Shown piece by piece: positions 6,492 through 30,217 of a stretch of 64,000 bases of DNA. Where the stretch lies: assembly GCA_016872555.1 (NCBI GenBank), contig VGZO01000004.1, positions 3,382 to 67,381 of the forward strand. Reading direction: 5' to 3'. This stretch comes from Planctomycetota bacterium (lineage in GTDB: Bacteria; Planctomycetota; Planctomycetia; Pirellulales; UBA1268). The position numbers were made by a program, and so were the translations under genes. Positions within the stretch are counted from its first letter, which is position 1, and every line of letters starts with the position of its first letter. The notes under the pieces are model-generated. The model had not been told where the DNA came from and ran no database searches. It was given only the letters and a program-made list of their open reading frames with translations.

Positions 6492-9140
6492 TCAGCCCGC
6501 CGCGAGGCTGTCGGTCACCAGGCGCCTCAGGGAGTTGTAGTCGGTCTTGCCGGTGCCGAGGACGGGGATCCGCTCGATCCGCCGCACCTCGTCGAGGCGC
6601 ATCACGCCGCGGAACCCGTCCTCGAGGAGCATCGCCGCCGCGTCGCGGAGCGACAGGTCGAACGTCGTAAACAGCACGACGTGCCGGCCGTCGTGGGTCT
6701 CGATCCCCTCGACGGCGACGCGCGGGCCGGCGTCATCGGGGGGAAAGCGCTTCTGGAACGGCTCCTCGAGCGCCGGCAGTGAAATCATCTCGCCCCCCGC
6801 CTTGAGGAAGCGCTTGAGGCGCCCCCGGAAAAACAGGTAGCCGTCGGGATCGGCGGCGACGAGGTCGCCGGTCCGGTACCAGGTCCGCCCCTGCGACTCG
6901 ACGAACGGCGACGGACCGTCGTGGCGATGGTAGCCGGGAAACACCGACGGGCCGCGCACCAGCAGCATCCCGCCAGCGGCCGCGTCGACCGGCTCGTGGG
7001 TCTCCGGATCGACGATCGTCACCTCGACGTTCCGCACCGGGCGGCCGATGCTCCCCGGCTTGGTGAGATCGAGGCGGTTGGCGGCGACGACCGGCGCACA
7101 CTCGGTGATCCCGTAACCCTCGAGGATCACCGCCTCCGGGGCCCGCGTGCGGCAGGCGGCAAACGTGGCCTCAGGGCATTTCTCGGCGCCGGTGATGATC
7201 CGCCGCAGGCTCGTCATCTCGTCGCCACGGCAGGCGGCGAGCATGTAGCCGAGGAACGTGGGCGTCGTGAACAGCAGCGACGGCTTCCAGGCGTCGATCA
7301 GGCGGACCAGGGCGTGGGCGTCGGTCGGGTCGGCGTGGCGGACGCTGCGGATGCCTGTCAGGTGCGGCATGACGACGTTGCCGGTGAGGCCAAACGAGTG
7401 GAACGGCGGCAGGAAGCCGAGCAGCGAATCGTCGGGTGTCGGCTGGAGGACGTCGAGGCTGTCGGCGACGTTGGTCAGCAGGTTGCGGTGGGTGAGCGGC
7501 ACCGTCTTGGGGGCGCTCTCGGAACCGCTGGTGAACAGGTACACCGCCGGGTCGTCACGATCCTGGCGCGGCAGGGCGCGGAGGAACGATCCGCCGGCGA
7601 ACTTCGCCCGGGCCAGCATGCCCAGTGCCTCGGCCTTGCCGATGCCCCCCTTGATGTCCTCGAGGAACTCGTACCCCGCCCCCTCGACGGCGATCCCGAG
7701 CCGGTCGACGAGCTTCCGCGAGGTGACGATCCGCCGGGTGTCGGTGACGGCGATCCCGTGGGCGAGGTTCGCCGGGCCGGTCGTCCAGTTCATCATCACC
7801 GGCACCTTGCCGGACATGTGGAGCGCGTAGAAGACGATGTCGGCCGCGGCGCTCGCCGGCAGCATCACGCCGACGTGCTCCTCGGGCCAGGCCGCGAAGC
7901 GCTTCGCCATCAGCGCCGCTCCCACGAGCACGCGCTGCCTCGTGAGCAGCCCCGAGACCGCGTCGGCGACGGCCACGCGCCCCGGATCGGCGGCGACGCG
8001 CCGCACGAACGCCTCGGCGATCGTGTCGGCCAGCAGCCGCGTGTCGCCGCGCGGCGCCGGGGCGAACCAGGCGGGCGGCACCGCGGCGGGCTTGGCGGCC
8101 GTGCCCGACGATCCGAGCCGTCCGTCGGCCAGCGCCCACAGTTGCCCGACCGTGTCGACCACCGCGTCGCTGTGGAACCCGAACTGCTGCTCGATCGCCA
8201 GCGCCACGTCCATCCGGTCGAGGCTGTCGAGGCCGAGCGACTCGAGCGTCGTCGTCGCCCCGAGCTCGTCGGGGGCGAACTCGCGCTTCAGGTGCGTGGC
8301 CAGCAGGCTGTTGACGAGGCGCGCCGTCTTCGGGGAGATCGTCGCCGCGTCGACGGAACAGGCCCCCGCCACCCGGCCATATTCGCAGCCGCTGGGGCCG
8401 AACAGCGCGTTGTAGCGCACGAAGGAGGGGGCCTCGCCGCCGTCGGCGTCGTACCAGCGTTCGAGGAAGGTGTTGAACGCCTCCCGTGACTCGAGCGGCA
8501 ATTCCCCGCGCGGCACCACCTCGGCGTGCATGTGCACGCGCCGGCGCGGGAGGAAGAACACCAGGCTCGCCAGCACCCAACCGAGCGACCGGGCGATCGC
8601 GCCGCCGAGGTTCGGCAGCTGGCCGTCGCGGGCGCAGCTGTACATGCTGCCGAACACGCCGCGCGTGCGGAGGAGCACGACCTGCGCCTGCGGGCAACGG
8701 GAGACGAGCTCGTGGACGAGCCGCGCCGACCCGACCACCTCACGGTCGCCGCGCCGGAGCCGCCCCGACGGGTAAATGAGGAAGCTGTCGCCGGCATCGA
8801 CTCGGGCCACGACCGCGTCGATCAGCTCCTTGGTGCGCGCGGCCGCGTCGCGGCTCTGCGCCGTGAGGTCGGGCACCTCGAAGGCGTCGATCAGCGCCAT
8901 CAGCGGCCGCAGCGGCGCGAGGCGGAACACGCCCGAAAAGACGAGCGGCCGCAGCGATTGGCGCACCGTGACGTGCGACAGCACCAGCGACGGATCGACG
9001 TAGGCAGGATGGTTGGGGAGAACGATCACCGGACCGGGCAGGTCGCGAAGCGCCTCCATCCCATCTGTCGTCACGCGGTACCGGAGGTGGTGCACCGGCC
9101 GCGCCAGCGCCCAGATCCACTTGTCGAGGTGCCAACCCAT
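6492..9140 (-). CDS. Aas-like tri-domain protein: PlsC-type acyltransferase, acyl carrier domain, AMP-dependent acyl ligase
   Basis: Inside ORF 6492..9266. ATG at 9140 (MGWHLDK) has GGGAGGG about 8 nt upstream. Motifs: HX4D acyltransferase motif NHPAYVD; phosphopantetheine site LGLDSLDRMD; AMP-binding motif YLFTSGSESAPKTV and a later TGD motif. Confidence 0.8.
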   Translation of the reverse strand: MGWHLDKWIWALARPVHHLRYRVTTDGMEALRDLPGPVIVLPNHPAYVDPSLVLSHVTVRQSLRPLVFSGVFRLAPLRPLMALIDAFEVPDLTAQSRDAAARTKELIDAVVARVDAGDSFLIYPSGRLRRGDREVVGSARLVHELVSRCPQAQVVLLRTRGVFGSMYSCARDGQLPNLGGAIARSLGWVLASLVFFLPRRRVHMHAEVVPRGELPLESREAFNTFLERWYDADGGEAPSFVRYNALFGPSGCEYGRVAGACSVDAATISPKTARLVNSLLATHLKREFAPDELGATTTLESLGLDSLDRMDVALAIEQQFGFHSDAVVDTVGQLWALADGRLGSSGTAAKPAAVPPAWFAPAPRGDTRLLADTIAEAFVRRVAADPGRVAVADAVSGLLTRQRVLVGAALMAKRFAAWPEEHVGVMLPASAAADIVFYALHMSGKVPVMMNWTTGPANLAHGIAVTDTRRIVTSRKLVDRLGIAVEGAGYEFLEDIKGGIGKAEALGMLARAKFAGGSFLRALPRQDRDDPAVYLFTSGSESAPKTVPLTHRNLLTNVADSLDVLQPTPDDSLLGFLPPFHSFGLTGNVVMPHLTGIRSVRHADPTDAHALVRLIDAWKPSLLFTTPTFLGYMLAACRGDEMTSLRRIITGAEKCPEATFAACRTRAPEAVILEGYGITECAPVVAANRLDLTKPGSIGRPVRNVEVTIVDPETHEPVDAAAGGMLLVRGPSVFPGYHRHDGPSPFVESQGRTWYRTGDLVAADPDGYLFFRGRLKRFLKAGGEMISLPALEEPFQKRFPPDDAGPRVAVEGIETHDGRHVVLFTTFDLSLRDAAAMLLEDGFRGVMRLDEVRRIERIPVLGTGKTDYNSLRRLVTDSLAAG

Positions 9141-9418
9141 CGTCACGACCCTCCCTTCCGGTACGGCATCTTCCCCCAATACCCCGCGGCACGGCCAGAC
9201 GGATTCCCAGGGTCGATGCCCCGGCGAAAGCCACAGTTCGAGGCGGGCAAGGGGAGCGAATGTCACGCGATCGGCGAAAACCGTCGGCCGTCAGGCTGGC
9301 GGTACCGTATTGTTGTCGGACCGAGTGCCGCCCTGGCACGGCCACGCGAATGGCCCCGGAGCCACCACAAGCCGCGACTGCCGGGATCGCTCAGTTCGAC
9401 CACCCCTCCCCTGTTTTG

Positions 9419-10429
9419 ATGCCTCTCCTCATGAGTCCGTTCGTTACCGCACCCTCATCCACCATGCCCCGCGGCACGTCCGCCTCTCCGTGCGGCCTGT
9501 CGATCCAGGGTCTCGTCAAGATCCACCCCGGACCGGTCTGCGCCCTCAAGGGTGTCGATCTCGAGATCCCGGGCGGGATGTTCGGCCTCCTCGGCCCCAA
9601 CGGCGCCGGCAAGAGCACGCTGATGAGCATCGTCGCCGGTCTTGTGGAGCCCACCGCCGGCACCGTGCTCCTCGACGGCGTCGACATCGTCGAGCGGCCG
9701 GCCTACGTGCGCGAGCGGCTCGGCTTCCTGCCGCAGGACTTCGGCTTCTATCCCGAGCTGTCGGGGCGCGCGATGCTCGAGTTCCTGCTGCGCCTCAAGG
9801 GGATCTCCGGGCCGAGCGGCCGGCGGGAGATTGCCGACGCGCTGCTCGAGCGGGTGAACCTCGCCGATGCCGCAAAGCGCAAGGTCGGGGGGTATTCCGG
9901 CGGCATGCGCCAGCGCCTCGGACTGGCGCAGGCGATCGCCGGCGACCCGCGAATTCTCATCGTCGACGAGCCGACGGCCGGCCTTGATCCCGAGGAACGG
10001 CAGCGGTTCTATCGCCTGCTCGCCGAATTGGCCGTGGGGCGCGTCGTCCTCCTCTCGACCCACATCGTCGACGACGTCGCCACGCTCTGCCCGCGCCTGG
10101 CGGTGATCAGGAGCGGCCAGGTGGTCGCCGACACGACCCCCACCGCGGCCCGTGACAGCGTCGACGGCCTCGTCCACGAGGGGTTCGTCGCCGACGCCGA
10201 CCTGGCCGGGTTCGCCAAGCAGCATCGGCTGCTGTCGGCCGTCCTCGTCGAGGGGCGCACCAACCGCGTGCGCGTCTTCGTGCCGCCGGGCGCCGTGGCC
10301 CCGGCCGGATTCGCCCGGAGCCCTGGCACGCTCGAAGACGCCTACCTCGTCCTGATGCGCGTCCCCGACCACGAGGTGCCGCCGGCCCTGGCCCGCTCGG
10401 CTCCTGTTTCGACGGAGGCCGCCCGATGA
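9419..10429 (+). CDS. ABC transporter ATP-binding protein
   Basis: Inside ORF 9260..10429. Walker A GPNGAGKST, signature YSGGMRQRL, Walker B ILIVDEPTAGLD. Start uncertain: ATGs at 9419, 9431 and 9464, none with a clear SD. Confidence 0.85.
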   Translation: MPLLMSPFVTAPSSTMPRGTSASPCGLSIQGLVKIHPGPVCALKGVDLEIPGGMFGLLGPNGAGKSTLMSIVAGLVEPTAGTVLLDGVDIVERPAYVRERLGFLPQDFGFYPELSGRAMLEFLLRLKGISGPSGRREIADALLERVNLADAAKRKVGGYSGGMRQRLGLAQAIAGDPRILIVDEPTAGLDPEERQRFYRLLAELAVGRVVLLSTHIVDDVATLCPRLAVIRSGQVVADTTPTAARDSVDGLVHEGFVADADLAGFAKQHRLLSAVLVEGRTNRVRVFVPPGAVAPAGFARSPGTLEDAYLVLMRVPDHEVPPALARSAPVSTEAAR

Positions 10430-22321: not shown

Positions 22322-23856
22322 GATCCCTCCTCTGGCGTGCCCGCGGCCGCGGCCCGTCGCTTCTTCTTCGCCCCCTTCGCCGAGCGGTCGGGCGCGTCGT
22401 TGGCCGGCAGCCTGGCCGCCAGCGCCGCCTCCACGGCGGCATGCTCGGGGCGGCCGGCGAGGTTCGTCCACTCGTGGGGATCGGCGGCGTGGTCGTAGAG
22501 CTCGACGCCGCCGTCGGCGTAGCGGATCAGCCGCCAGCGCTCGTCGCGCAGCGCGTGGTTGCCGCGGCCGTGCGTGGTCAGCGCGGGATGGTCCCACGCA
22601 CGGTCGGGGCGCTCGAGCAGGGGCCGGAGGCTGCGCCCGTCGAGTGCCGGCGGCGTGTCGAGGCCGCAGAGATCGACGATGGTCGGAAACAGGTCGACGA
22701 GCCCCACCGGCCGGGAACAGCGCCCGCCGGGGACCGTCACGCCCGGCGCGATCACGACCAGGGGCACGCGCGTCGAGCGCTCCCAGAGCGTGAACTTGTG
22801 GAGATGGTCCTTCTCGCCGAGGTGCCAGCCATGGTCGCTCCACAGGACGACGATCGTCCGCTCCCGCGCCGGCGAGGCGTCGAGGGCGTCGACGAGCCGG
22901 CCGACGAGCGCGTCGCAGAACGAGATCGACGCCAGGTAGGCCTGGAGCAGCTCGTGTTCCTTCCCTGCGGCACGGACGAGCTCGAGGTCGCCGCGCCGCG
23001 CGGCCGCCATCCGCTGGCCGGCCGCGGGGAGGTCGGCGCAGTCGTCGGCCTTCACCGGCGGGGGCACGATCGCGTCGGGCGGATAGGCGTCGAAATACCT
23101 CCGCGGCGCGTACCAGGGGAGGTGCGGTCGGTAGATCCCCGCGGCGAGGAAAAACGGCTCGCGCGGCGGCGCGCGGAGGATCCGCTCCGCCCAGGCGACC
23201 ATCCGGCCGTCGCCGGAGTCGGCGTCGTCGGCATCGAGCGGGCCCCAGTCGAACTCACGCGCGTTGTCGGGGGGCCGGGCCAGGTCGCGGACCGAGGCGA
23301 GCCCGTTGCGCGGAAATCCCTCCGGCCAGCGGAACGCCTCCGGATCGAGGCCGGCGGCGAGCGCCTGCTGGTAGGGACCGTCGAAGACCTGCGGAAACCA
23401 CTCGTCCCAGTCGGCAACGCGGTTGAAGCCTGGCATGTGATGGTTGATCTTGCCGCCACCGGCGACGAACGCGCCATGGCGGCGAAACCAGCCGGGAATC
23501 GTCGCCACGTCGCCGAGCGCCTCGTGCCAGACGACCGAGTTGTCGTGGATCCCGGTGGCATGCGGCGCGCGGCCGGTGAGGACGGCGACGCGCGACGGGT
23601 TGCAGACCGGCGCAGGGCAATGGGCGTTGGTGAACAGCATCCCGCGGGCCGCGAGCCGATCGAGGTGCGGCGTGTGCACCTGCGGATGGCCGCCGAGGCA
23701 GCCGACCCAGTCGTTGAGATCGTCGACGACGACGAACAGGACGTTGGCCGTCGGCGGCGCTGCGGCGGCGGCGCCACGGGCGGGCCCGCACGCCGCCGCG
23801 CTCGCCACGAGCCCGGCGACGATCGCAACGGCGGCCCGACGCGACCCGCCGTTCAT
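22318..23856 (-). CDS. S1 sulfatase (Cys-type)
   Basis: Inside ORF 22318..25344. ATG at 23856 (MNGGSRRAAVAIVAGL). NVLFVVVDDLNDW..APVCNPSRVAVLTGR is present. ATGA overlap with the downstream sulfatase start at 22321. Confidence 0.85.
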   Translation of the reverse strand: MNGGSRRAAVAIVAGLVASAAACGPARGAAAAAPPTANVLFVVVDDLNDWVGCLGGHPQVHTPHLDRLAARGMLFTNAHCPAPVCNPSRVAVLTGRAPHATGIHDNSVVWHEALGDVATIPGWFRRHGAFVAGGGKINHHMPGFNRVADWDEWFPQVFDGPYQQALAAGLDPEAFRWPEGFPRNGLASVRDLARPPDNAREFDWGPLDADDADSGDGRMVAWAERILRAPPREPFFLAAGIYRPHLPWYAPRRYFDAYPPDAIVPPPVKADDCADLPAAGQRMAAARRGDLELVRAAGKEHELLQAYLASISFCDALVGRLVDALDASPARERTIVVLWSDHGWHLGEKDHLHKFTLWERSTRVPLVVIAPGVTVPGGRCSRPVGLVDLFPTIVDLCGLDTPPALDGRSLRPLLERPDRAWDHPALTTHGRGNHALRDERWRLIRYADGGVELYDHAADPHEWTNLAGRPEHAAVEAALAARLPANDAPDRSAKGAKKKRRAAAAGTPEEGS

Positions 23857-25346
23857 GCCGCCTTCCCCGGGGCGGGCGCGGCGGCCGGCGGCTCGCGGCC
23901 GAAGAAGTAGTCGGGATACCCCCAGCGGTGCTTCGCTGCCTCCTTCTTCTTCGGCTGCCCCCGCACCTCCTCGGTGAAGCGGCGCACGAGGGCCGGATCG
24001 AGGAGCGGATCGGCCGACTCCCGCCGCCAGGCTTCCAGCGCCACCGCGAGCCGGTCGCGGACCGCGGCATGGACGGGGTCGGCGGCGAGGTTGGTGAACT
24101 CGTGGGGGTCGGCGGCGAGGTCGTAGAGTTCGAAGCGCGGCGGGCGGCGCATCGTCGCGTAGCCGGCCCGGACCGTGGCCGGCGCCGTCGCGAGCGCCTC
24201 GATCGCCGACGGAAACTGCTCGATCGTGAAGTCGTGGCCCGGATTGACCTCGTCGGGGAGGAGGTTTTCGATCAGCTTCCAGCGCCCGTCGCGCACGCTC
24301 CGCTGCGGGTAGACGTTGCGCTTCGTGGCCTGCGTGTGGTATTCGGCGAACAGGTGCTCGCGCCATGCCGGCGTGCCGGGGGCGAACAGCGCCACGAGCG
24401 ACCGGCCGGGGAGCGCGTGATCGGCCGGCTGCCCGGCCACCTCGAGAAACGTCGGCAGGAGGTCGATCGACGAGACGAGCTCGCGCCGCACCTGCCCCGG
24501 GGCGATCTTCCCCGGCCAGCGCGCGATCAGCGGGATCCGCAGCCCCCCTTCGTAGCAGGTCCGCTTGCCGCGGAGCATGTCGGCCCCGTGGTCTCCCATG
24601 GCGATCACCAGGGTGTCGCGTGCCTTCCCCGAGGCCTCGAGCGCCGAAAGCAGGTCGCCGACGAGCGCGTCGAGCCGCATCAGGCAGTTGTAATAGTCGG
24701 CGACGTGGCCGCGCAACTCGGGCGTGTCGACGCCGAAGCCGGGCAGCGCGCGGACGTCGTCGGCACCGAGCGGCACTGCGGGCAGGCCGTCGACCTGCCG
24801 GAGGCGCGGATCGTGGGCGTCGGGATAGTTGATCGAGAGGAAGAACGGCGCGTCGCCGGCGGCGAAGAACTCGGCAGCGTGGCGGGCGTAGGCGGCGAGG
24901 TCCTTGCGGTCGAAGTTCGAGATCCCGAGCCGCATGAAGTCGAACGGAAACGCCCCCTCGGGGTTGACGTGGAGCTTGCCGATCAGGCCGGTCCGGTAGC
25001 CGGCCGCCGCGAGCCGGCGCGGGAGGGTGGGGATGTCGTCGCGGTAGAGGCGGAAGCCCCACGTCGCCAGGCCGACCTGGCCGTGCTGGTGTGGGTAGAG
25101 CCCGGTGAGGAAGCTGGCCCGCGACGAGCTGCAGCCGGCCTGCGTGACGAACGCCCGGTCGAAGCGGATGCCGTCGGCGGCGAGCCGGTCGAGCACCGGC
25201 GTGCGCACGAACGGATCGCCGTAGCAGCCGAGCTCGGGGCCGTGGTCCTCGGAGACGATGAGGAGGATGTTGGGGCGGTCGGCCGCGCGTGCGGTCGGCG
25301 ACACGAGGGCGACCGCCACGGCGCCGCTCGCGATCACCAACCACAT
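23853..25346 (-). CDS. S1 sulfatase, N-sulfoglucosamine sulfohydrolase (SGSH)-like, with non-canonical CSSSR motif
   Basis: Inside ORF 23853..25607. ATG at 25346 (MWLVIASGAVAVALV). NILLIVSEDHGPELGCYG..AGCSSSRASFLTGLYPHQHGQVGL parallels the recalled SGSH segment [22 protein letters not shown]. ATGA overlap with the start at 23856. Confidence 0.8.
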   Translation of the reverse strand: MWLVIASGAVAVALVSPTARAADRPNILLIVSEDHGPELGCYGDPFVRTPVLDRLAADGIRFDRAFVTQAGCSSSRASFLTGLYPHQHGQVGLATWGFRLYRDDIPTLPRRLAAAGYRTGLIGKLHVNPEGAFPFDFMRLGISNFDRKDLAAYARHAAEFFAAGDAPFFLSINYPDAHDPRLRQVDGLPAVPLGADDVRALPGFGVDTPELRGHVADYYNCLMRLDALVGDLLSALEASGKARDTLVIAMGDHGADMLRGKRTCYEGGLRIPLIARWPGKIAPGQVRRELVSSIDLLPTFLEVAGQPADHALPGRSLVALFAPGTPAWREHLFAEYHTQATKRNVYPQRSVRDGRWKLIENLLPDEVNPGHDFTIEQFPSAIEALATAPATVRAGYATMRRPPRFELYDLAADPHEFTNLAADPVHAAVRDRLAVALEAWRRESADPLLDPALVRRFTEEVRGQPKKKEAAKHRWGYPDYFFGREPPAAAPAPGKAA

Positions 25347-25389
25347 CCGCCGTTCACCGTGGCGACGGCGCTGGGTTCGGCTGCCCGTC

Positions 25390-25518
25390 CGCCGCAGCCT
25401 CGGCTCGGGCTCGACAGAGGGGGACGCCCCTCGCGCGTCTGCCCTCGCATCGACCCGCAGCCAGTCGGTGACGGGCCGATGCGAGGGCGACGGCGGAGGG
25501 GCTCCGCGGGTCCCTGGG
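25390..25518 (-). repeat. Leader element copy A (about 125 nt), upstream of the sulfatase operon
   Basis: Its reverse complement aligns by eye at roughly 90 percent identity with 25914..26039. Contains a perfect 12-bp stem, GCCCTCGCATCG (25441..25452) / CGATGCGAGGGC (25477..25488), and a GAGGGG..CCCCTC hairpin at 25417..25432. Confidence 0.8.
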
Positions 25519-25913
25519 AAAAAAGGACCGCAGTGGCCGGCGGCCTCATCGCTCGCCTGCGGCGGCGCGGTTGGCCCTTCGACTCCCGAATAGATCGCCG
25601 TGGACATACCCCCTCCCGTTTCCTGCCACCACCGCGCCCGGCCGGAATGGTATCACGGTGCCTGACGACTCGGGCATCGGCAGACGCCCGATGGCGGCAT
25701 CGGCAGGAGCATGGATCGCCGCAGTAACACTGGCAGCGGTAGCGGCACGGCACGGCTCAGAGCAACGGCAACGGCAACGGTCGCAGCGGTAGCAGAAGCC
25801 CTGGTAGCTCAGGGGCGGGTCTCCACCTTCATCCCGTCGTTCTCCATCGAGTCGGGATCGACGAGACGGGCGCTCTGCGAATCGGGACCAGCAATGATCC
25901 GGCATGCCCGCCC
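25519..25913. promoter_or_regulatory. Divergent control region between the sulfatase operon and the NanM-like gene
   Basis: Non-coding by my reading. Contains direct repeats GGCATCGGCAG (25673..25683, 25696..25706) and GCAGCGGTAGC (25733..25743, 25783..25793), a (CAACGG)x3 run at 25763..25780 and an A6 run at 25519..25524. Confidence 0.5.
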
Positions 25914-26039
25914 CCCAGGGACCCGCGAAGCCCCTCCGCCATCGCCGTCGCATCGGCCCGTCACCCCTGGCTGCGGGTCGATGCGACGGCGAGGCGCGAG
26001 GGGCGTCCCCTCTGTCGAGCCCGAGCCGAGGCTCCGTCG
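25914..26039 (+). repeat. Leader element copy B (about 125 nt), upstream of the NanM-like gene
   Basis: Same unit as copy A in the opposite orientation. Stem is GCCGTCGCATCG (25944..25955) / CGATGCGACGGC (25979..25990). Hairpin GAGGGG-CGT-CCCCTC lies at 25998..26012, with an upstream CCCCTC at 25931..25936. Confidence 0.8.
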
Positions 26040-26090
26040 TTCAAGAAGCCACCTGATCTTCCACAAGGTCCATGATTGTCGCACCTGCGC

Positions 26091-27227
26091 ATGCCCTTCT
26101 CCTTCCGTCCCATGATCTCGGCCTGCCTACCCCTGGCGATCGCCCTCGCCGCGGCCGCCGCGCACGCCGCCGAGCCGCTCCGCTGGCAACCGCTCCCGCC
26201 GCTCCCCGACGCTCTGGGCGTCGCCGGGCCGTTCGTCGGCATCCACGGCGGGGCGGTGATCGTCGCCGGTGGAGCGAACTTCCCGGTCGCCCCTGGCGAA
26301 GACCGTTGGACGGTGCCGAAGCGCTGGCAGCAGGGCGTTTGGGTCCTGCCGCGCGACGGCTCCGGCTGGCTCGCCGCGGCACCCCTCCCCCGGCCGCGCG
26401 CCGGCGGCGCCGTCGCGTCGATCCCCGCCGGCGTGGTCTGCATCGGTGGCGACGACGGCGCGACGGCAGTGGCGACCGTCACGCTCCTCCGCTGGGATCC
26501 GGGCACCGGTCAGGTCGTCGCGCGTGAGCTTCCGCCGTTGCCGCACCCGCTCACCGCCTGCGCCGCCGCCGCGCTCGGCAGCGTCGTCTACGTCGCCGGG
26601 GGACAGCGGGGCACCGCCCCCGACGGCGCGACGGCCGCGTTCCTCCGGCTCGACTGCCGCCCCCTCGACCGCGGCTCTCCCGCCGGGGAGCTCCACTGGG
26701 AGGCGCTTCCCGACGTTCCCGGCGGACCGCGGGCGCTGCCGGTGGTCGTCGCCCGGGGCTCGGGCGCGGTCCACGTCATCAGCGGGCGGCGTTCGATGGC
26801 GGGTGGAGCGGCCGCCGCGATCGAGGCCCTCGTCGACCACTGGGAGTTCGACGCCGCGCGGGTCGCCGCCGATCCGGGGTCGGGCTGGATCCGGCGCGCC
26901 CCCCTGCCGCAGCCGGCGATGGCGGGAAGCGCGGTGGCGGCCGGCGCGGCGCACATCGTCGTCGTCTCCGGCGACGATGGCGCGCTGTGGCAGCGGACCG
27001 CGATCCTCCGCGACGCGCATCCCGGTTTCGCCCCGCGGGCACTGGCCTACGGCGCCGCGGCCGACCGCTGGACGGCGCTCGCTCCTCCCCCGGTCAACCA
27101 ACTGGCGACGCCTGCCGTGCCGGTCACCGACGGGTTCATCCTCGTCAGCGGCGAGGTGAAACCGCGCCACCGCTCACCGGCGGCGTGGCGTGTGTCGATC
27201 GACACGGATGCCCTCCCTGTTCCCTGA
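26091..27227 (+). CDS. Kelch-repeat, cyclically permuted mutarotase family protein (N-acetylneuraminate epimerase NanM-like)
   Basis: Inside ORF 26076..27227, whose printed M is a TTG. ATG at 26091 gives the signal peptide MPFSFRPMISACLPLAIALAAAAAHA. WQPLPPLPDALGVAG..GGAVIVAGGANFP and repeated GG-containing Kelch-like blades are present. Confidence 0.7.
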   Translation: MPFSFRPMISACLPLAIALAAAAAHAAEPLRWQPLPPLPDALGVAGPFVGIHGGAVIVAGGANFPVAPGEDRWTVPKRWQQGVWVLPRDGSGWLAAAPLPRPRAGGAVASIPAGVVCIGGDDGATAVATVTLLRWDPGTGQVVARELPPLPHPLTACAAAALGSVVYVAGGQRGTAPDGATAAFLRLDCRPLDRGSPAGELHWEALPDVPGGPRALPVVVARGSGAVHVISGRRSMAGGAAAAIEALVDHWEFDAARVAADPGSGWIRRAPLPQPAMAGSAVAAGAAHIVVVSGDDGALWQRTAILRDAHPGFAPRALAYGAAADRWTALAPPPVNQLATPAVPVTDGFILVSGEVKPRHRSPAAWRVSIDTDALPVP

Positions 27228-27244: not shown

Positions 27245-27880
27245 ATGCACCCCCACGCCGGACAGCCGCCGCTGGTTCCCTGCCGCGCCCAGGGCCCGGG
27301 CACGGAACTGTTCATCGTCGAGGGGGAGTCGGCCGCCGGCGCCGTGGCGCGGGTCCGCGACGAGGCGTTCCAGGCGGTGCTGGCGCTGCGCGGCAAACCG
27401 CTCAACGCCCTCCGCGCCCCGCGCGGCCGCGTCGCCGGCCATGCCTTCTTCGCCGCCCTCTCCGCGGCCCTCGGCGTGCCGCTCGGCGGCGATGGCGCGG
27501 CCTCCCCGGCGCGCTACGAACGCCTCCTGTTGCTGATGGATCCCGATGCCGACGGGATCCACTGCGGCGCCCTGGTCGTCGCCTTCCTCCACCGCTGGAT
27601 GCCGTTCCTGCTCGACCGGCGTTGCGTCGAGATCGTCAGGCCGCCCTGGGGAGAAGTCGTGCCGACCGACGGCAGCGAGCCGGCGCTGGCCTGGTCCGAC
27701 GGCGAACTGAAAGCCCTGGCCGCGGCGCGGGCCGCCGGGGCTGTCGCGCGGCGCTTCCGCGGCCTGGCCGCGCTCGACGCCGCGCTGCTCGCGCGGACGT
27801 GCGTCGCTCCCGCGACGCGGCGCGCGGACGCCGTCACGCAGGCCGACGCCGCCGAGATCATCGTCCTGCTGGGCGAGTGA
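27245..27880 (+). CDS. Stand-alone GyrB/ParE C-terminal-half homologue (Toprim domain plus GyrB tail), 211 aa
   Basis: Inside ORF 26987..27880, ATG at 27245. [12 protein letters not shown] matches GyrB [24 protein letters not shown] matches [38 protein letters not shown] matches [46 protein letters not shown] matches QRYKGLGEM..ADQLFTTLMG. There is no GHKL ATPase or transducer region. Confidence 0.75.
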   Translation: [211 protein letters not shown]

Positions 27881-27916: not shown

Positions 27917-30079
27917 TCAGCCGGAAGGCGACGCTCCCGGCGGAGACGAACCGGCCGGCGGCAACGTGCCCACACCGGGGCGAGCCGGACCGCGCGGCGG
28001 ACCGGACGGCGCTCCGGGACCTCCCGGATACGGAGTCCCCGGGCTACCGGGGATCGTTCCCGGCGGAACTGAACCCGGCGGAGCCGAGCCCGGCGGAAGG
28101 GAACCGGGGGGCAGCGCACCCGGAGGCAAGGACCCAGGAGGCAAGGACCCCGGAGGCAGCGATCCGGGGGGCAGCGCCCCCGGCGGCGTCGCGCCCGGCG
28201 GTGTCGTCCCCGGGGGATTCTGCCCGGCGAACTGGTCGGGGGAGTTGCGCTTCTTCTTTCCCTCGCGCTTGTTCTTGCACAGGATCATCACCGTGCTCGG
28301 CCCGGACTGCTCCTGGACATCGGGCCATTCGAGCTTCGGTCGCCCGCTGGCCGGCTCGATATCCTCGACATGCTCGCGGATGAACGGCCATACGCGCTCG
28401 ATCGGGATGCCGACGTTGTAGGCGTTGCCGACATTGCTCGTGCGGACGATTGCCACGACCACGCCGATGACGGCCCCCGTGTCGTCGATCAGCGGACCGC
28501 CGCTGTTGCCGGGATTGGTCTGTGCGCCATGGAGGAAATTGCCGCCGTCGAGCTGGGGGTCGGCGGCCGACATCACGTCGCCCTGCGAGCCCTTCACTTC
28601 CATCCCCAGCGCCGTTCCGGCTGGGTAGCCAAGGGCCATGATGCGGCTTCCGCTGCGCGGCATCTTCGGCGCCAGCGGGAGTGGGTCGGCCGACAGATCT
28701 TCGCATCGCAACAGCGCGACGTCGGGGTTGTCGATCGACGCGACGAGCGTAGCCACGACTTGCCGCTCCTTGTCGGCAGGGTCGAAGACGACGAACTCGT
28801 TGCCGTCCTCGATGACGTGCTTGTTGGTGAGGATATAGCCCGGGGCGATCACGAATCCGGTGCCGCTCGAGATCCGGACGACGGTGTCCTCCTCCGGTTC
28901 GTCGAGCAGCGCGTTGCCGTCGGTCCGGTTGCGGGTGTCCCAGCGGCGACCGTTTGGAAGCAGGACGGTGAAGGCGAGGATCCCGCGGCCGTTCCCGCCG
29001 GCTTCACCCCCCGGCCCCTGCCCCGCCGCGCCCGGGCCGCCACGCCCGCCGGGACCGCCACGACCTCCCGGGCCGGGGCCACCTCCTCCCGGCGGAGCGC
29101 CAGGGATGCCTCCCGGGGGCCCGCCTGGCGACGCACCGCCGGCGAGGCCGTCACCGTCGCCGGGCGCGCCACCGGGCGCCGCCCCGCCCCCGTCACCACC
29201 GGGGCCGCCACCACCGCGGCTGAACTTGCCGGGGTCGTAGGGACTCAGCCCGAGATCGTGGATCGCCCAGCGGTACAGTTCGTTGATCTCCTGGGCGTTC
29301 TTCTCCGGGATGCGCAGCCGCATCGTGTTGGCACCGGCGCCGATCGTGACCCCGAGGTTGTCACAGACGTCCTGGAGGTCGGGCATGATGTCGAGCGCCT
29401 TCTTGAAGTGGCGGGCAGCGGCGCCATACCGCTTCAGGAAGACCTCGCTGACGGCGAGGTTGTTGTAGGCGAAGGCGTTGCCCGGCTCGCGCTTGATCAC
29501 TTCGGAGAAGTGCTCGGCGGCCTTGAGGTCGTTGTCGGCGACGAGCGAGTAGATCAGCCCCATGATGAAGTCGGCCTTGCCGCTCTCGGGATGGAGCCGG
29601 CTGGCCCGCGTCAACTCGTCCTTACACAGTTCGCGGTCGTTGAGGCGCCACAGCTCGAAGGAGTGCGTGATCAAGCGCTCGGTCTGCTGTTCGATCTCCT
29701 CGTACTCCTGCTGCGTGACCCAGCGCTTGCCGAGCCGGCGCCGCTTCTCGTCGGCATACTTCAGCCAGTCCTTCAACCGCGCTTCGGCGGCCTTCCGCTC
29801 GATCGTCGGCAGTTTCTTGTCGGCGAGGTAGATCTTGTAGACCTGCACCGCCTCGGCCGCGGTCCGGCAGGCGAGGGCGTCGGCCTCGATCGCTTTGATC
29901 TCCTCGGGCACCGGTCCCGGATCGATGCCGTGGACGCCGACCTGGGGCGTGCTCGGCTGCGACTTCTTGCCCGAGCCCGGCTTCGCTCCCGGCGACTGGG
30001 CACCGGCCGGCGCGGCCACCAGCACCAGCGCGAGAGAGGCGACGAGCACCGTGAACGTCCGAAACGCGAAGCGCGGCAT
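27917..30079 (-). CDS. Secreted TPR-repeat, trypsin-like (S1C/HtrA-type) serine protease with Gly/Pro-rich linker and C-terminal PPGxx repeats
   Basis: Inside ORF 27917..30160. ATG at 30079 (MPRFAFRTFTVLVASLALVLVAAPAGA). TPR-like helices at the N-terminus and GNSGGPLID around the catalytic Ser. The C-terminus has about 11 units of (PPGxx). Confidence 0.8.
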   Translation of the reverse strand: MPRFAFRTFTVLVASLALVLVAAPAGAQSPGAKPGSGKKSQPSTPQVGVHGIDPGPVPEEIKAIEADALACRTAAEAVQVYKIYLADKKLPTIERKAAEARLKDWLKYADEKRRRLGKRWVTQQEYEEIEQQTERLITHSFELWRLNDRELCKDELTRASRLHPESGKADFIMGLIYSLVADNDLKAAEHFSEVIKREPGNAFAYNNLAVSEVFLKRYGAAARHFKKALDIMPDLQDVCDNLGVTIGAGANTMRLRIPEKNAQEINELYRWAIHDLGLSPYDPGKFSRGGGGPGGDGGGAAPGGAPGDGDGLAGGASPGGPPGGIPGAPPGGGGPGPGGRGGPGGRGGPGAAGQGPGGEAGGNGRGILAFTVLLPNGRRWDTRNRTDGNALLDEPEEDTVVRISSGTGFVIAPGYILTNKHVIEDGNEFVVFDPADKERQVVATLVASIDNPDVALLRCEDLSADPLPLAPKMPRSGSRIMALGYPAGTALGMEVKGSQGDVMSAADPQLDGGNFLHGAQTNPGNSGGPLIDDTGAVIGVVVAIVRTSNVGNAYNVGIPIERVWPFIREHVEDIEPASGRPKLEWPDVQEQSGPSTVMILCKNKREGKKKRNSPDQFAGQNPPGTTPPGATPPGALPPGSLPPGSLPPGSLPPGALPPGSLPPGSAPPGSVPPGTIPGSPGTPYPGGPGAPSGPPRGPARPGVGTLPPAGSSPPGASPSG
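28059..28223. repeat. Eleven imperfect 15-bp tandem repeats (coding, PPGxx pentapeptide units)
   Basis: Units read cccggcggaactgaa / cccggcggagccgag / cccggcggaagggaa / ccggggggcagcgca / cccggaggcaaggac / ccaggaggcaaggac / and so on. They were read directly and lie inside the protease gene's 3' end. Confidence 0.85.
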
Positions 30080-30217
30080 GGATCTCACACTCGGCGAAGA
30101 CGGGGATACCGGGCACCGGCAGATGGGCGCCGACGCACGCTCCGGCGGCGTCGTCCCCACCCCACGAGGGCGATTCTACCACGGCCCCCTCGAAACCAGC
30201 CCGCCGTGCCCGGCGCG

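Follow-up and report, generated by a model that had tools for sequence, protein, structure and literature searches.

A stand-alone Toprim-and-tail half of the type IIA topoisomerase B subunit in freshwater Planctomycetota

Background

Type IIA topoisomerases are major antibiotic targets and have been described as obligatorily ATP-gated. Their Toprim site positions Mg2+ and an acid/base Glu, and the nucleophile is the catalytic tyrosine carried by GyrA or ParC. The part of the B subunit (GyrB or ParE) that consists of the Toprim domain and the following tail, hereafter B', is available as laboratory fragments. Here, we describe a natural counterpart, a 211-aa protein encoded by a Planctomycetota bacterium of the order Pirellulales (assembly GCA_016872555.1, contig VGZO01000004.1) within a stretch of 64,000 nucleotides, called the window in what follows. 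This protein is a stand-alone B' half of a type IIA topoisomerase B subunit, without ATPase or transducer.

The closest described proteins are E. coli GyrB47 (GyrB residues 393-804, PMC7897471) and the S. pneumoniae ParE30 and M. tuberculosis GyrB Toprim constructs, all of which have the same fold and boundaries as the window protein. In contrast to these laboratory fragments, the window protein is the product of a natural separate gene and does not contain the insert of Gram-negative GyrB. If it pairs with GyrA, the complex would have the same A2B'2 composition as "topoisomerase II-prime", the combination of E. coli GyrA and the nu protein, which arose from a GyrB fragment in E. coli extracts. 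An enzyme of this composition has no ATP-operated clamp and can cleave, religate and relax DNA in the absence of ATP. In 1979, Brown, Peebles and Cozzarelli, and Gellert, Fisher and O'Dea, reportedly described GyrA together with a C-terminal GyrB fragment of ~47-50 kDa as an ATP-independent relaxing enzyme. Unlike the fragment in topoisomerase II-prime, B' is here encoded by a dedicated gene with its own signatures, inherited vertically and horizontally.

Two other kinds of Toprim protein are relevant for comparison. Phage T4 gp60 is likewise a short separate polypeptide, which covers the DxDxD part of Toprim and the tail; it lacks the EGDSA/GKxLN half of Toprim, which gp39 carries, and its partners are gp39 and gp52 of the same phage. 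The window protein, in contrast, encloses the whole Toprim domain, and tblastn searches of the window and of the loci fetched from relatives found no partner genes near it or in the same element; matches in the phage collection searched cover at most 70% of the protein. RNase M5/RnmV, OLD/GajA and PARIS AriB, which are small or modular proteins, also combine the Toprim Glu and a DxD Mg2+ site without the topoisomerase tyrosine. The window protein differs from them by its derivation from GyrB/ParE and by its GyrB tail domain, and it has no sequence match to them in NCBIfam or PADLOC.

Domain architecture and conserved residues

The protein runs collinear with the B' part (Toprim plus tail) of GyrB/ParE, and its homologues start at the equivalent position in a 23-sequence family alignment (alignment A1). 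Of the two Pfam profiles named in the initial annotation, which had been made from the DNA letters alone, the Toprim profile exceeds its gathering score (Table 1) and places the protein in the Toprim superfamily, whereas DNA_gyraseB_C (PF00986) stays below threshold (13.9 bits against 29.8, profile positions 7-42 of 63). The NCBIfam gyrB and parE models are matched only at model positions ~405-609, with E-values down to 6e-32; the scores of 98.8, 99.9 and 83.6 bits are roughly one tenth of the equivalog cut-offs (882 bits for TIGR01059 gyrB and 723-900 bits for parE). Against PDB sequences, phmmer aligned residues 10-204, without large gaps, to the ParE30/GyrB Toprim constructs (3foe_C, 1.3e-30). 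An AlphaFold2 model computed from the family alignment (predicted local distance difference test 88.6, predicted template modelling score 0.87) superposes on the ParE30/GyrB Toprim chains with template modelling (TM) scores of 0.80-0.85 at 29-34% identity. These four lines of evidence bear out the initial proposal that the gene encodes the second half of GyrB/ParE from the Toprim boundary onwards, and the restricted range of model positions agrees with the absence of the GHKL ATPase and of the transducer, which had also been noted.

The protein does not qualify as GyrB/ParE itself: it has a Toprim domain with the EGDSA-type Glu and DxDxD, but it lacks the GHKL ATPase and transducer, an equivalog-level score and a complete tail. 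By its length, boundaries, signatures and clade placement, it belongs to an unnamed family of short B' proteins, defined by a length of ~200-240 aa, a start at the KLxDC linker, an end at the LMG equivalent, two signatures, DPDADG(I)H(C) and R-G-L-A, and a position in the clade of short forms. NCBI names the members "toprim domain-containing protein".

Conservation was examined in 91 short representatives and 17 canonical comparators, using S. pneumoniae ParE numbers counted from the EGDSA box with D435 as presumed anchor. The window protein shares with canonical B' the catalytic Glu (E26), the DxDxD site (D99/D101/D103), GKxLN (G50-K51 and N54), the His after DxDxDG (H106), the G-L of the tail motif and a conserved tail Arg (R192). 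In ParE numbering, the residues conserved in both groups are E428, E433 (catalytic), G434, S436, A437, R445, Q450, G457, K458 and N461 in the N-terminal part and, further on, D506/D508/D510, G511, H513, P541, G582-L583, L591, P598 and R601. The equivalent of E26 is present in 100% of both groups and, as the three Asp residues, is invariant in A1; the initial observation that the catalytic Glu (EGES) and DPDADG are kept therefore holds.

Other positions set the short forms apart from full-length proteins. The metal site reads DPDADGIHC in the short family versus DADVDGSHI in canonical proteins. Three positions have been switched and fixed, A507 to P (giving DPDADG), K581 to R and R456 to Q (93%), the window's sub-lineage having R (R49) at the last of them. 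A Pro after GK, an Ile before the His and a Cys at the T595 position are specific to the short family, and H66, C107, C186 and W135 (in PPWGE) are invariant in a Planctomycete-centred alignment. In the tail motif, R169, R170, R172, G173, L174 and A175 are invariant in A1, and the K-to-R switch, the G and the L are found in 89%, 96% and 90% of the 91 representatives. With such conservation, RGLAAL is a fixed family variant and not, as first read, a degenerated KGLGEM.

A feature to be added to the initial annotation is the shortening of the tail: the protein ends at the LMG equivalent, without the VEPRRxFI segment. Between the [RK]GL[GA] motif and the C-terminus, the 79 short forms compared have a median of 43 residues and the 16 canonical comparators one of 65, and VEPRRxFI is recognisable, often as a variant, in the full-length comparators. 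In fused type IIA enzymes this segment precedes the A subunit. Briefly, compared with canonical B', the window protein carries DPDADGIHC and RGLA, is devoid of LMGD-VEPRRxFI and has no ATPase/transducer gene nearby.

Family distribution, phylogeny and selection

The short B' family is large and conserved, and databases label its members only generically. A word-indexed search among proteins of similar length recovered at least 829 clusters (90% identity) of 190-270 aa; the names, where given, read for the most part "toprim domain-containing protein" or "DNA gyrase subunit B", and the sources are metagenome-assembled genomes (MAGs) of Planctomycetia/Pirellulales. At 50% identity there are at least 91 short representatives. 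Relatives occur in 274 species in a scan with one genome per species, and among the best 80 of these 274, 71 are Planctomycetota by NCBI label, the remainder being mostly Pseudomonadota. The carriers are mainly freshwater (lake) Planctomycetota; some Beta- and Gammaproteobacteria also have the gene, among them Methylophilaceae with three genuine low-GC loci. Literature searches found no publication describing the family.

In a profile search of 1.84 billion representatives, complete short forms rank first and the first full-length GyrB-like protein appears at 170 bits. In a maximum likelihood tree of the Toprim-tail region, the 91 short representatives form one clade (support of 99 in the Shimodaira-Hasegawa-like approximate likelihood ratio test) with the window protein nested inside; 13 full-length proteins and three pieces of ordinary GyrB fall outside this clade. 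This topology suggests a single origin of the short forms. No domain fusions were found: longer hits with the family signature correspond to start-codon extensions or low-complexity inserts, and longer hits with KGLGEM are ordinary GyrB fragments. One of the long members, P0182 (367 aa, with DPDADGIHI and RFRGLASL), contains, in the stretch that leads from the PPLFE strand to the tail, a Pro/Ser-rich low-complexity insert of ~150 residues.

The ratio of nonsynonymous to synonymous substitution rates (dN/dS) in close pairs of orthologues is 0.05-0.23. Between the window gene and its orthologues in two fetched loci, L009 and L001, it is 0.17 and 0.14, respectively. The protein is free-standing, folded (as judged from the AlphaFold2 model) and under purifying selection.

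Genomic context

The gene lies directly behind an unrelated gene for a NanM-like protein, as stated in the initial annotation, and it is indeed not a simple truncated gyrB, the DNA upstream being that of the NanM-like gene. The "glycan operon" position that had been seen as unexplained has no functional meaning that we can see. Indeed, adjacency to NanM is kept only in the closest relatives (the window and loci L001-3, L009 and L011). In the next lineage (L004 and L010, 63% identity) the NanM-like gene is reduced to a C-terminal remnant of 56 aa and the Toprim gene is intact; in this lineage, the neighbour has decayed and the Toprim gene has been kept. The remnant (55% identity) stands directly upstream of the Toprim gene at 7808-7972 of L004 and 9784-9948 of L010.

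Other lineages have different neighbours, and no neighbour is conserved family-wide according to clustering of open reading frames in ~80 loci and a Pfam scan of 37 neighbour-cluster representatives. Synteny is only lineage-specific: a GFO/IDH/MocA oxidoreductase in 21 loci, a DUF1559 pseudopilin-like protein in 20, and a sigma factor, an LpoB-like protein and a DHH-CBS protein. The flanks in other lineages encode unrelated housekeeping or metabolic functions (GFO/IDH/MocA, DUF1559, SecA/KdtA/SpoU, rubredoxin, V-ATPase, and resistance-nodulation-division (RND) pumps).

tblastn detected no match to the N-terminal part of GyrB (GyrB-N) or to GyrA within ~10 kb in 88 loci and 9 further loci, or in the 64-kb window. 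The probes were E. coli GyrB-N and GyrA, the first 250 aa of the GyrA probe being 100% identical to E. coli records. As no partner is found near any fetched locus, any partner would have to be encoded elsewhere, for example by the housekeeping gyrA or parC.

An RND efflux pump (AcrB/CusA-type with its adaptor) adjoins the short Toprim gene in three Methylophilaceae loci and one Burkholderiales locus (L087 10745-14948, L080, L088 and L089 3515-7643), with differing gene orientations. The fetched flanks of only 8 of ~90 loci have an AcrB-like match, and the adjacency is rare in Planctomycete loci. With so few loci, we rejected this adjacency as a functional link and treat it as, probably, local synteny or chance.

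One short B' member, WP_100922781.1, is encoded on the megaplasmid pTs417 of Candidatus Thiodictyon syntrophicum Cad16T. It is 79% identical to P0124, the representative of a cluster that includes a protein from a Burkholderiales MAG, and 76% identical to P0277, a member of the Burkholderiales cluster. The locus examined is L091 (NZ_CP020371.1, 166711-185100), in which the Toprim gene occupies positions 8959-9639. It closes a co-directional run composed of a hypothetical protein, an ATP-dependent helicase, an RNB ribonuclease and the Toprim protein, with 30 nt between the last two genes. On its flanks are a PRTRC cassette (ParB, ThiF and proteins B/C/E) and VirB10 fragments, and the region looks like a decayed conjugative element. 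In the ~95 kb around the Toprim gene, there is no annotated gyrase or topoisomerase and no match to the GyrB-N or GyrA probes. The plasmid copy and the spread across phyla among lake bacteria indicate horizontal transfer of the family, and they argue that the short B' protein either works by itself or has a broadly conserved host component as its target.

Possible functions

Our preferred reading, to which we assign a probability of roughly 0.4, is that the protein is an ATPase-less B-type subunit that gives its Mg2+ site to a GyrA or ParC encoded elsewhere. As its Toprim site is of the type IIA kind, without a nucleophile of its own, B' would most likely dock on the A subunit. Its partner would be a dimer of GyrA or ParC whose gene lies elsewhere in the genome, and the resulting A2B'2 complex could cleave and reseal DNA without ATP, acting as an ATP-independent relaxing or resealing enzyme, a natural "topoisomerase II-prime". 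By competing with full-length GyrB/ParE, it would also lower ATP-driven supercoiling, as a gyrase modulator. The K-to-R switch, the replacement of GEM by A-x-x, the loss of the Glu equivalent to E475 and that of the terminal VEPRR helix would tune or alter this docking.

Several observations favour this reading. The protein matches ParE30/GyrB Toprim-tail fragments that, according to the titles of the PDB entries, were crystallised with A-subunit cores and DNA in cleavage complexes, and we take such fragments to be cleavage-competent. The conservation of the catalytic and DNA-gate residues, the low dN/dS, the single clade and the breadth of the family point in the same direction. In addition, the gene is shared by distant phyla and occurs on a megaplasmid, where PRTRC, helicase and VirB10 genes lie beside it; this suggests that the protein acts on something widely conserved.

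Other results weigh against it. An EPRR-type pattern occurs in none of the 79 short forms, the segment missing from the tail corresponding to the canonical VEPRRxFIxxNA; with this segment absent and KGLGEM altered, canonical docking may be weakened or lost. The equivalents of G439, E475, G486, G488, F491, T520 and M586, among others, are relaxed in the short family. No link to DNA metabolism was seen in the Planctomycetota neighbourhoods scanned, and the search for expression gave one possible RNA run, with a single 250-nt contig from a library of unknown type.

It is conceivable, if doubtful, that this extends to the family as a whole, and that lake Planctomycetes, some Proteobacteria and their plasmids carry a dedicated B' for the GyrA/ParC DNA gate, serving as an ATP-independent type IIA topoisomerase or as a factor that reseals orphaned GyrA-DNA cleavage complexes. 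If this were true, DNA relaxation or repair, as well as the damping of gyrase, would be open to the cell at no cost in ATP. More generally, a widespread B'-only gene under selection would point to an ATP-independent enzyme, to a regulator or protector of gyrase/topoisomerase IV, or to a new use of Toprim. Any of the three would be a new player in supercoiling homeostasis, of relevance to the action of gyrase-targeting compounds in environmental bacteria. Experiments on this family would be easy: the protein is small and soluble, homology identifies its catalytic residues, and assays for gyrase are well established.

A rather unlikely alternative is that B' works by binding alone, as a regulator, decoy or protector: bound to GyrA/ParC, or to a toxin, phage protein or antibiotic aimed at the Toprim/DNA-gate region, it would titrate or shield gyrase without strand passage. 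The AlphaFold2 superposition indicates that the overall surface of B' is kept, and two changed positions, the equivalents of ParE R456 (Q in 93%) and E475 (lost), presumably line the quinolone pocket in canonical enzymes. The sporadic distribution, which points to horizontal transfer and includes a plasmid region similar to an integrative and conjugative element, is typical of accessory protective genes. However, a pure decoy would have no need of the catalytic Glu and the three Asp of DxDxD, which are invariant across more than 90 diverged representatives. Moreover, in the loci sampled the gene is not linked to clusters for antibiotic biosynthesis, to toxin genes or to defence islands, and only a few syntenic loci account for the proximity of RND pumps in Betaproteobacteria.

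We also consider it unlikely that the protein is a Toprim phosphotransferase that works on its own or with a different partner and uses water as nucleophile, that is, a DNA or RNA nuclease like RNase M5 or the OLD type. Such an activity would fit an intact acidic site combined with altered docking elements (no VEPRR helix, changed tail motif), and the family-specific invariants H66, C107, C186 and W135 point to new constraints; the Thiodictyon copy also lies 30 nt behind helicase and RNB ribonuclease genes. On the other hand, neither NCBIfam nor PADLOC reported a similarity to models of RNase M5 or OLD, and no partner is conserved across lineages. The tail domain is conserved, and we know of no role for the GyrB tail domain outside the A-B interface. 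The variant of this idea put forward in the initial annotation, a nuclease recruited for defence, fares no better: no PADLOC family was matched at E <= 1 (thus none of the anti-phage Toprim proteins OLD/Gabija GajA, PARIS AriB or Wadjet JetD), and the neighbours are metabolic or housekeeping genes rather than a defence island.

It is very improbable that B' is one part of a split B subunit, completed by a GHKL-transducer protein encoded elsewhere in the manner of T4 gp39/gp60. Split type IIA B subunits do exist in T4-like phages, and residues 87-189 are matched (6.3e-9) by phrog_7229, annotated as DNA topoisomerase II, which we take to be gp60-like. Against this, no GyrB-N-like coding sequence was found in the tblastn searches described above (~10 kb around 88 loci and 9 further loci, and the 64-kb window), and the missing C-terminal helix is unlike a simple fission product. 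The family is, besides, present in Methylophilaceae, in Burkholderiales and on a Chromatiaceae plasmid, and in these three groups complete gyrB and parE genes are to be expected. Two full-length pairs of GyrA and GyrB are known from at least some Planctomycetes (PMC8567305), which also speaks against a split subunit.

Finally, a decaying, functionless remnant of a duplicated gyrB/parE, as the short length, the two missing domains and the position behind an unrelated gene might suggest and as the initial annotation had considered, is refuted by the dN/dS values, by the hundreds of full-length orthologues with the same boundaries, by the native-like base composition at third codon positions (GC3) and by the retention of the Toprim gene where its NanM neighbour has decayed.

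Features of the locus

The coordinates of the gene, of its motifs and of its upstream neighbour are collected in Table 1.

Table 1. Position of the stand-alone B' gene and of related features in the window
Feature	Position	Strand	Evidence or remark
Stand-alone B' protein gene (Toprim + shortened tail), 211 aa	27245..27880	+	Stop codon included
Toprim domain (residues 21-116)	27305..27592	+	Pfam PF01751, 1.1e-8, 35.6 bits against a cut-off of 23.1
E-G-E-S motif, E26 = catalytic general acid/base Glu (EGDSA box)	27320..27331	+	Homology
R49-G-K-P-L-N54, equivalent of the PLRGKxLN DNA-gate box	27389..27406	+	G, K and N kept in short and full-length forms
D-P-D-A-D-G-I-H-C, DxDxD Mg2+-binding site, family-specific form	27539..27565	+	D99, D101 and D103 invariant in A1
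R-R-F-R-G-L-A-A-L, fixed family version of the (Q/R)(Y/F)KGLGEM tail motif	27749..27775	+	Conservation
C-terminal I-V-L-L-G-E, LMG(D) equivalent, end of the protein	27860..27877	+	Comparison of tail lengths
Upstream neighbour, NanM/Kelch mutarotase-like gene with signal-peptide-like N-terminus	26076..27227	+	Pfam NANM 1.6e-21; not a functional part

The spacer between the stop codon of the NanM-like gene and the ATG of the Toprim gene is 17 nt, in agreement with the initial annotation, and co-transcription of the two genes is possible. The Toprim gene has a GC content of 0.77 and a GC3 of 0.92, similar to those of neighbouring genes, and there is thus no sign of recent import. Rfam, promoter and terminator scans around the gene returned nothing meaningful.

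Downstream, 36 nt separate the end of the Toprim gene from a convergent gene (27917-30160, minus strand). It encodes a protein of 747 aa with Gly/Pro-rich low-complexity stretches in its middle and a repetitive PPG(S/A)(L/V) C-terminal tail, and it adjoins the Toprim gene in L001, L004, L009, L010 and L011 as well.

Upstream of the NanM-like gene, the divergent intergenic region that separates it from a sulfatase gene (23853..25607, minus strand) contains an inverted duplicate of ~140-170 nt, located at 25379-25518 and 25914-26050 of the window. Its arms match over 52 nt at 94%, 44 nt at 84%, 24 nt at 96% and 20 nt at 95%, and both copies have the same orientation relative to their own gene. 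A 36-nt core occurs only twice in the window and matches no Rfam family, and the copy examined contains a hairpin (25927-25960 / 25974-26007). This duplicate may be a shared leader or operator of the two glycan-degradation genes.

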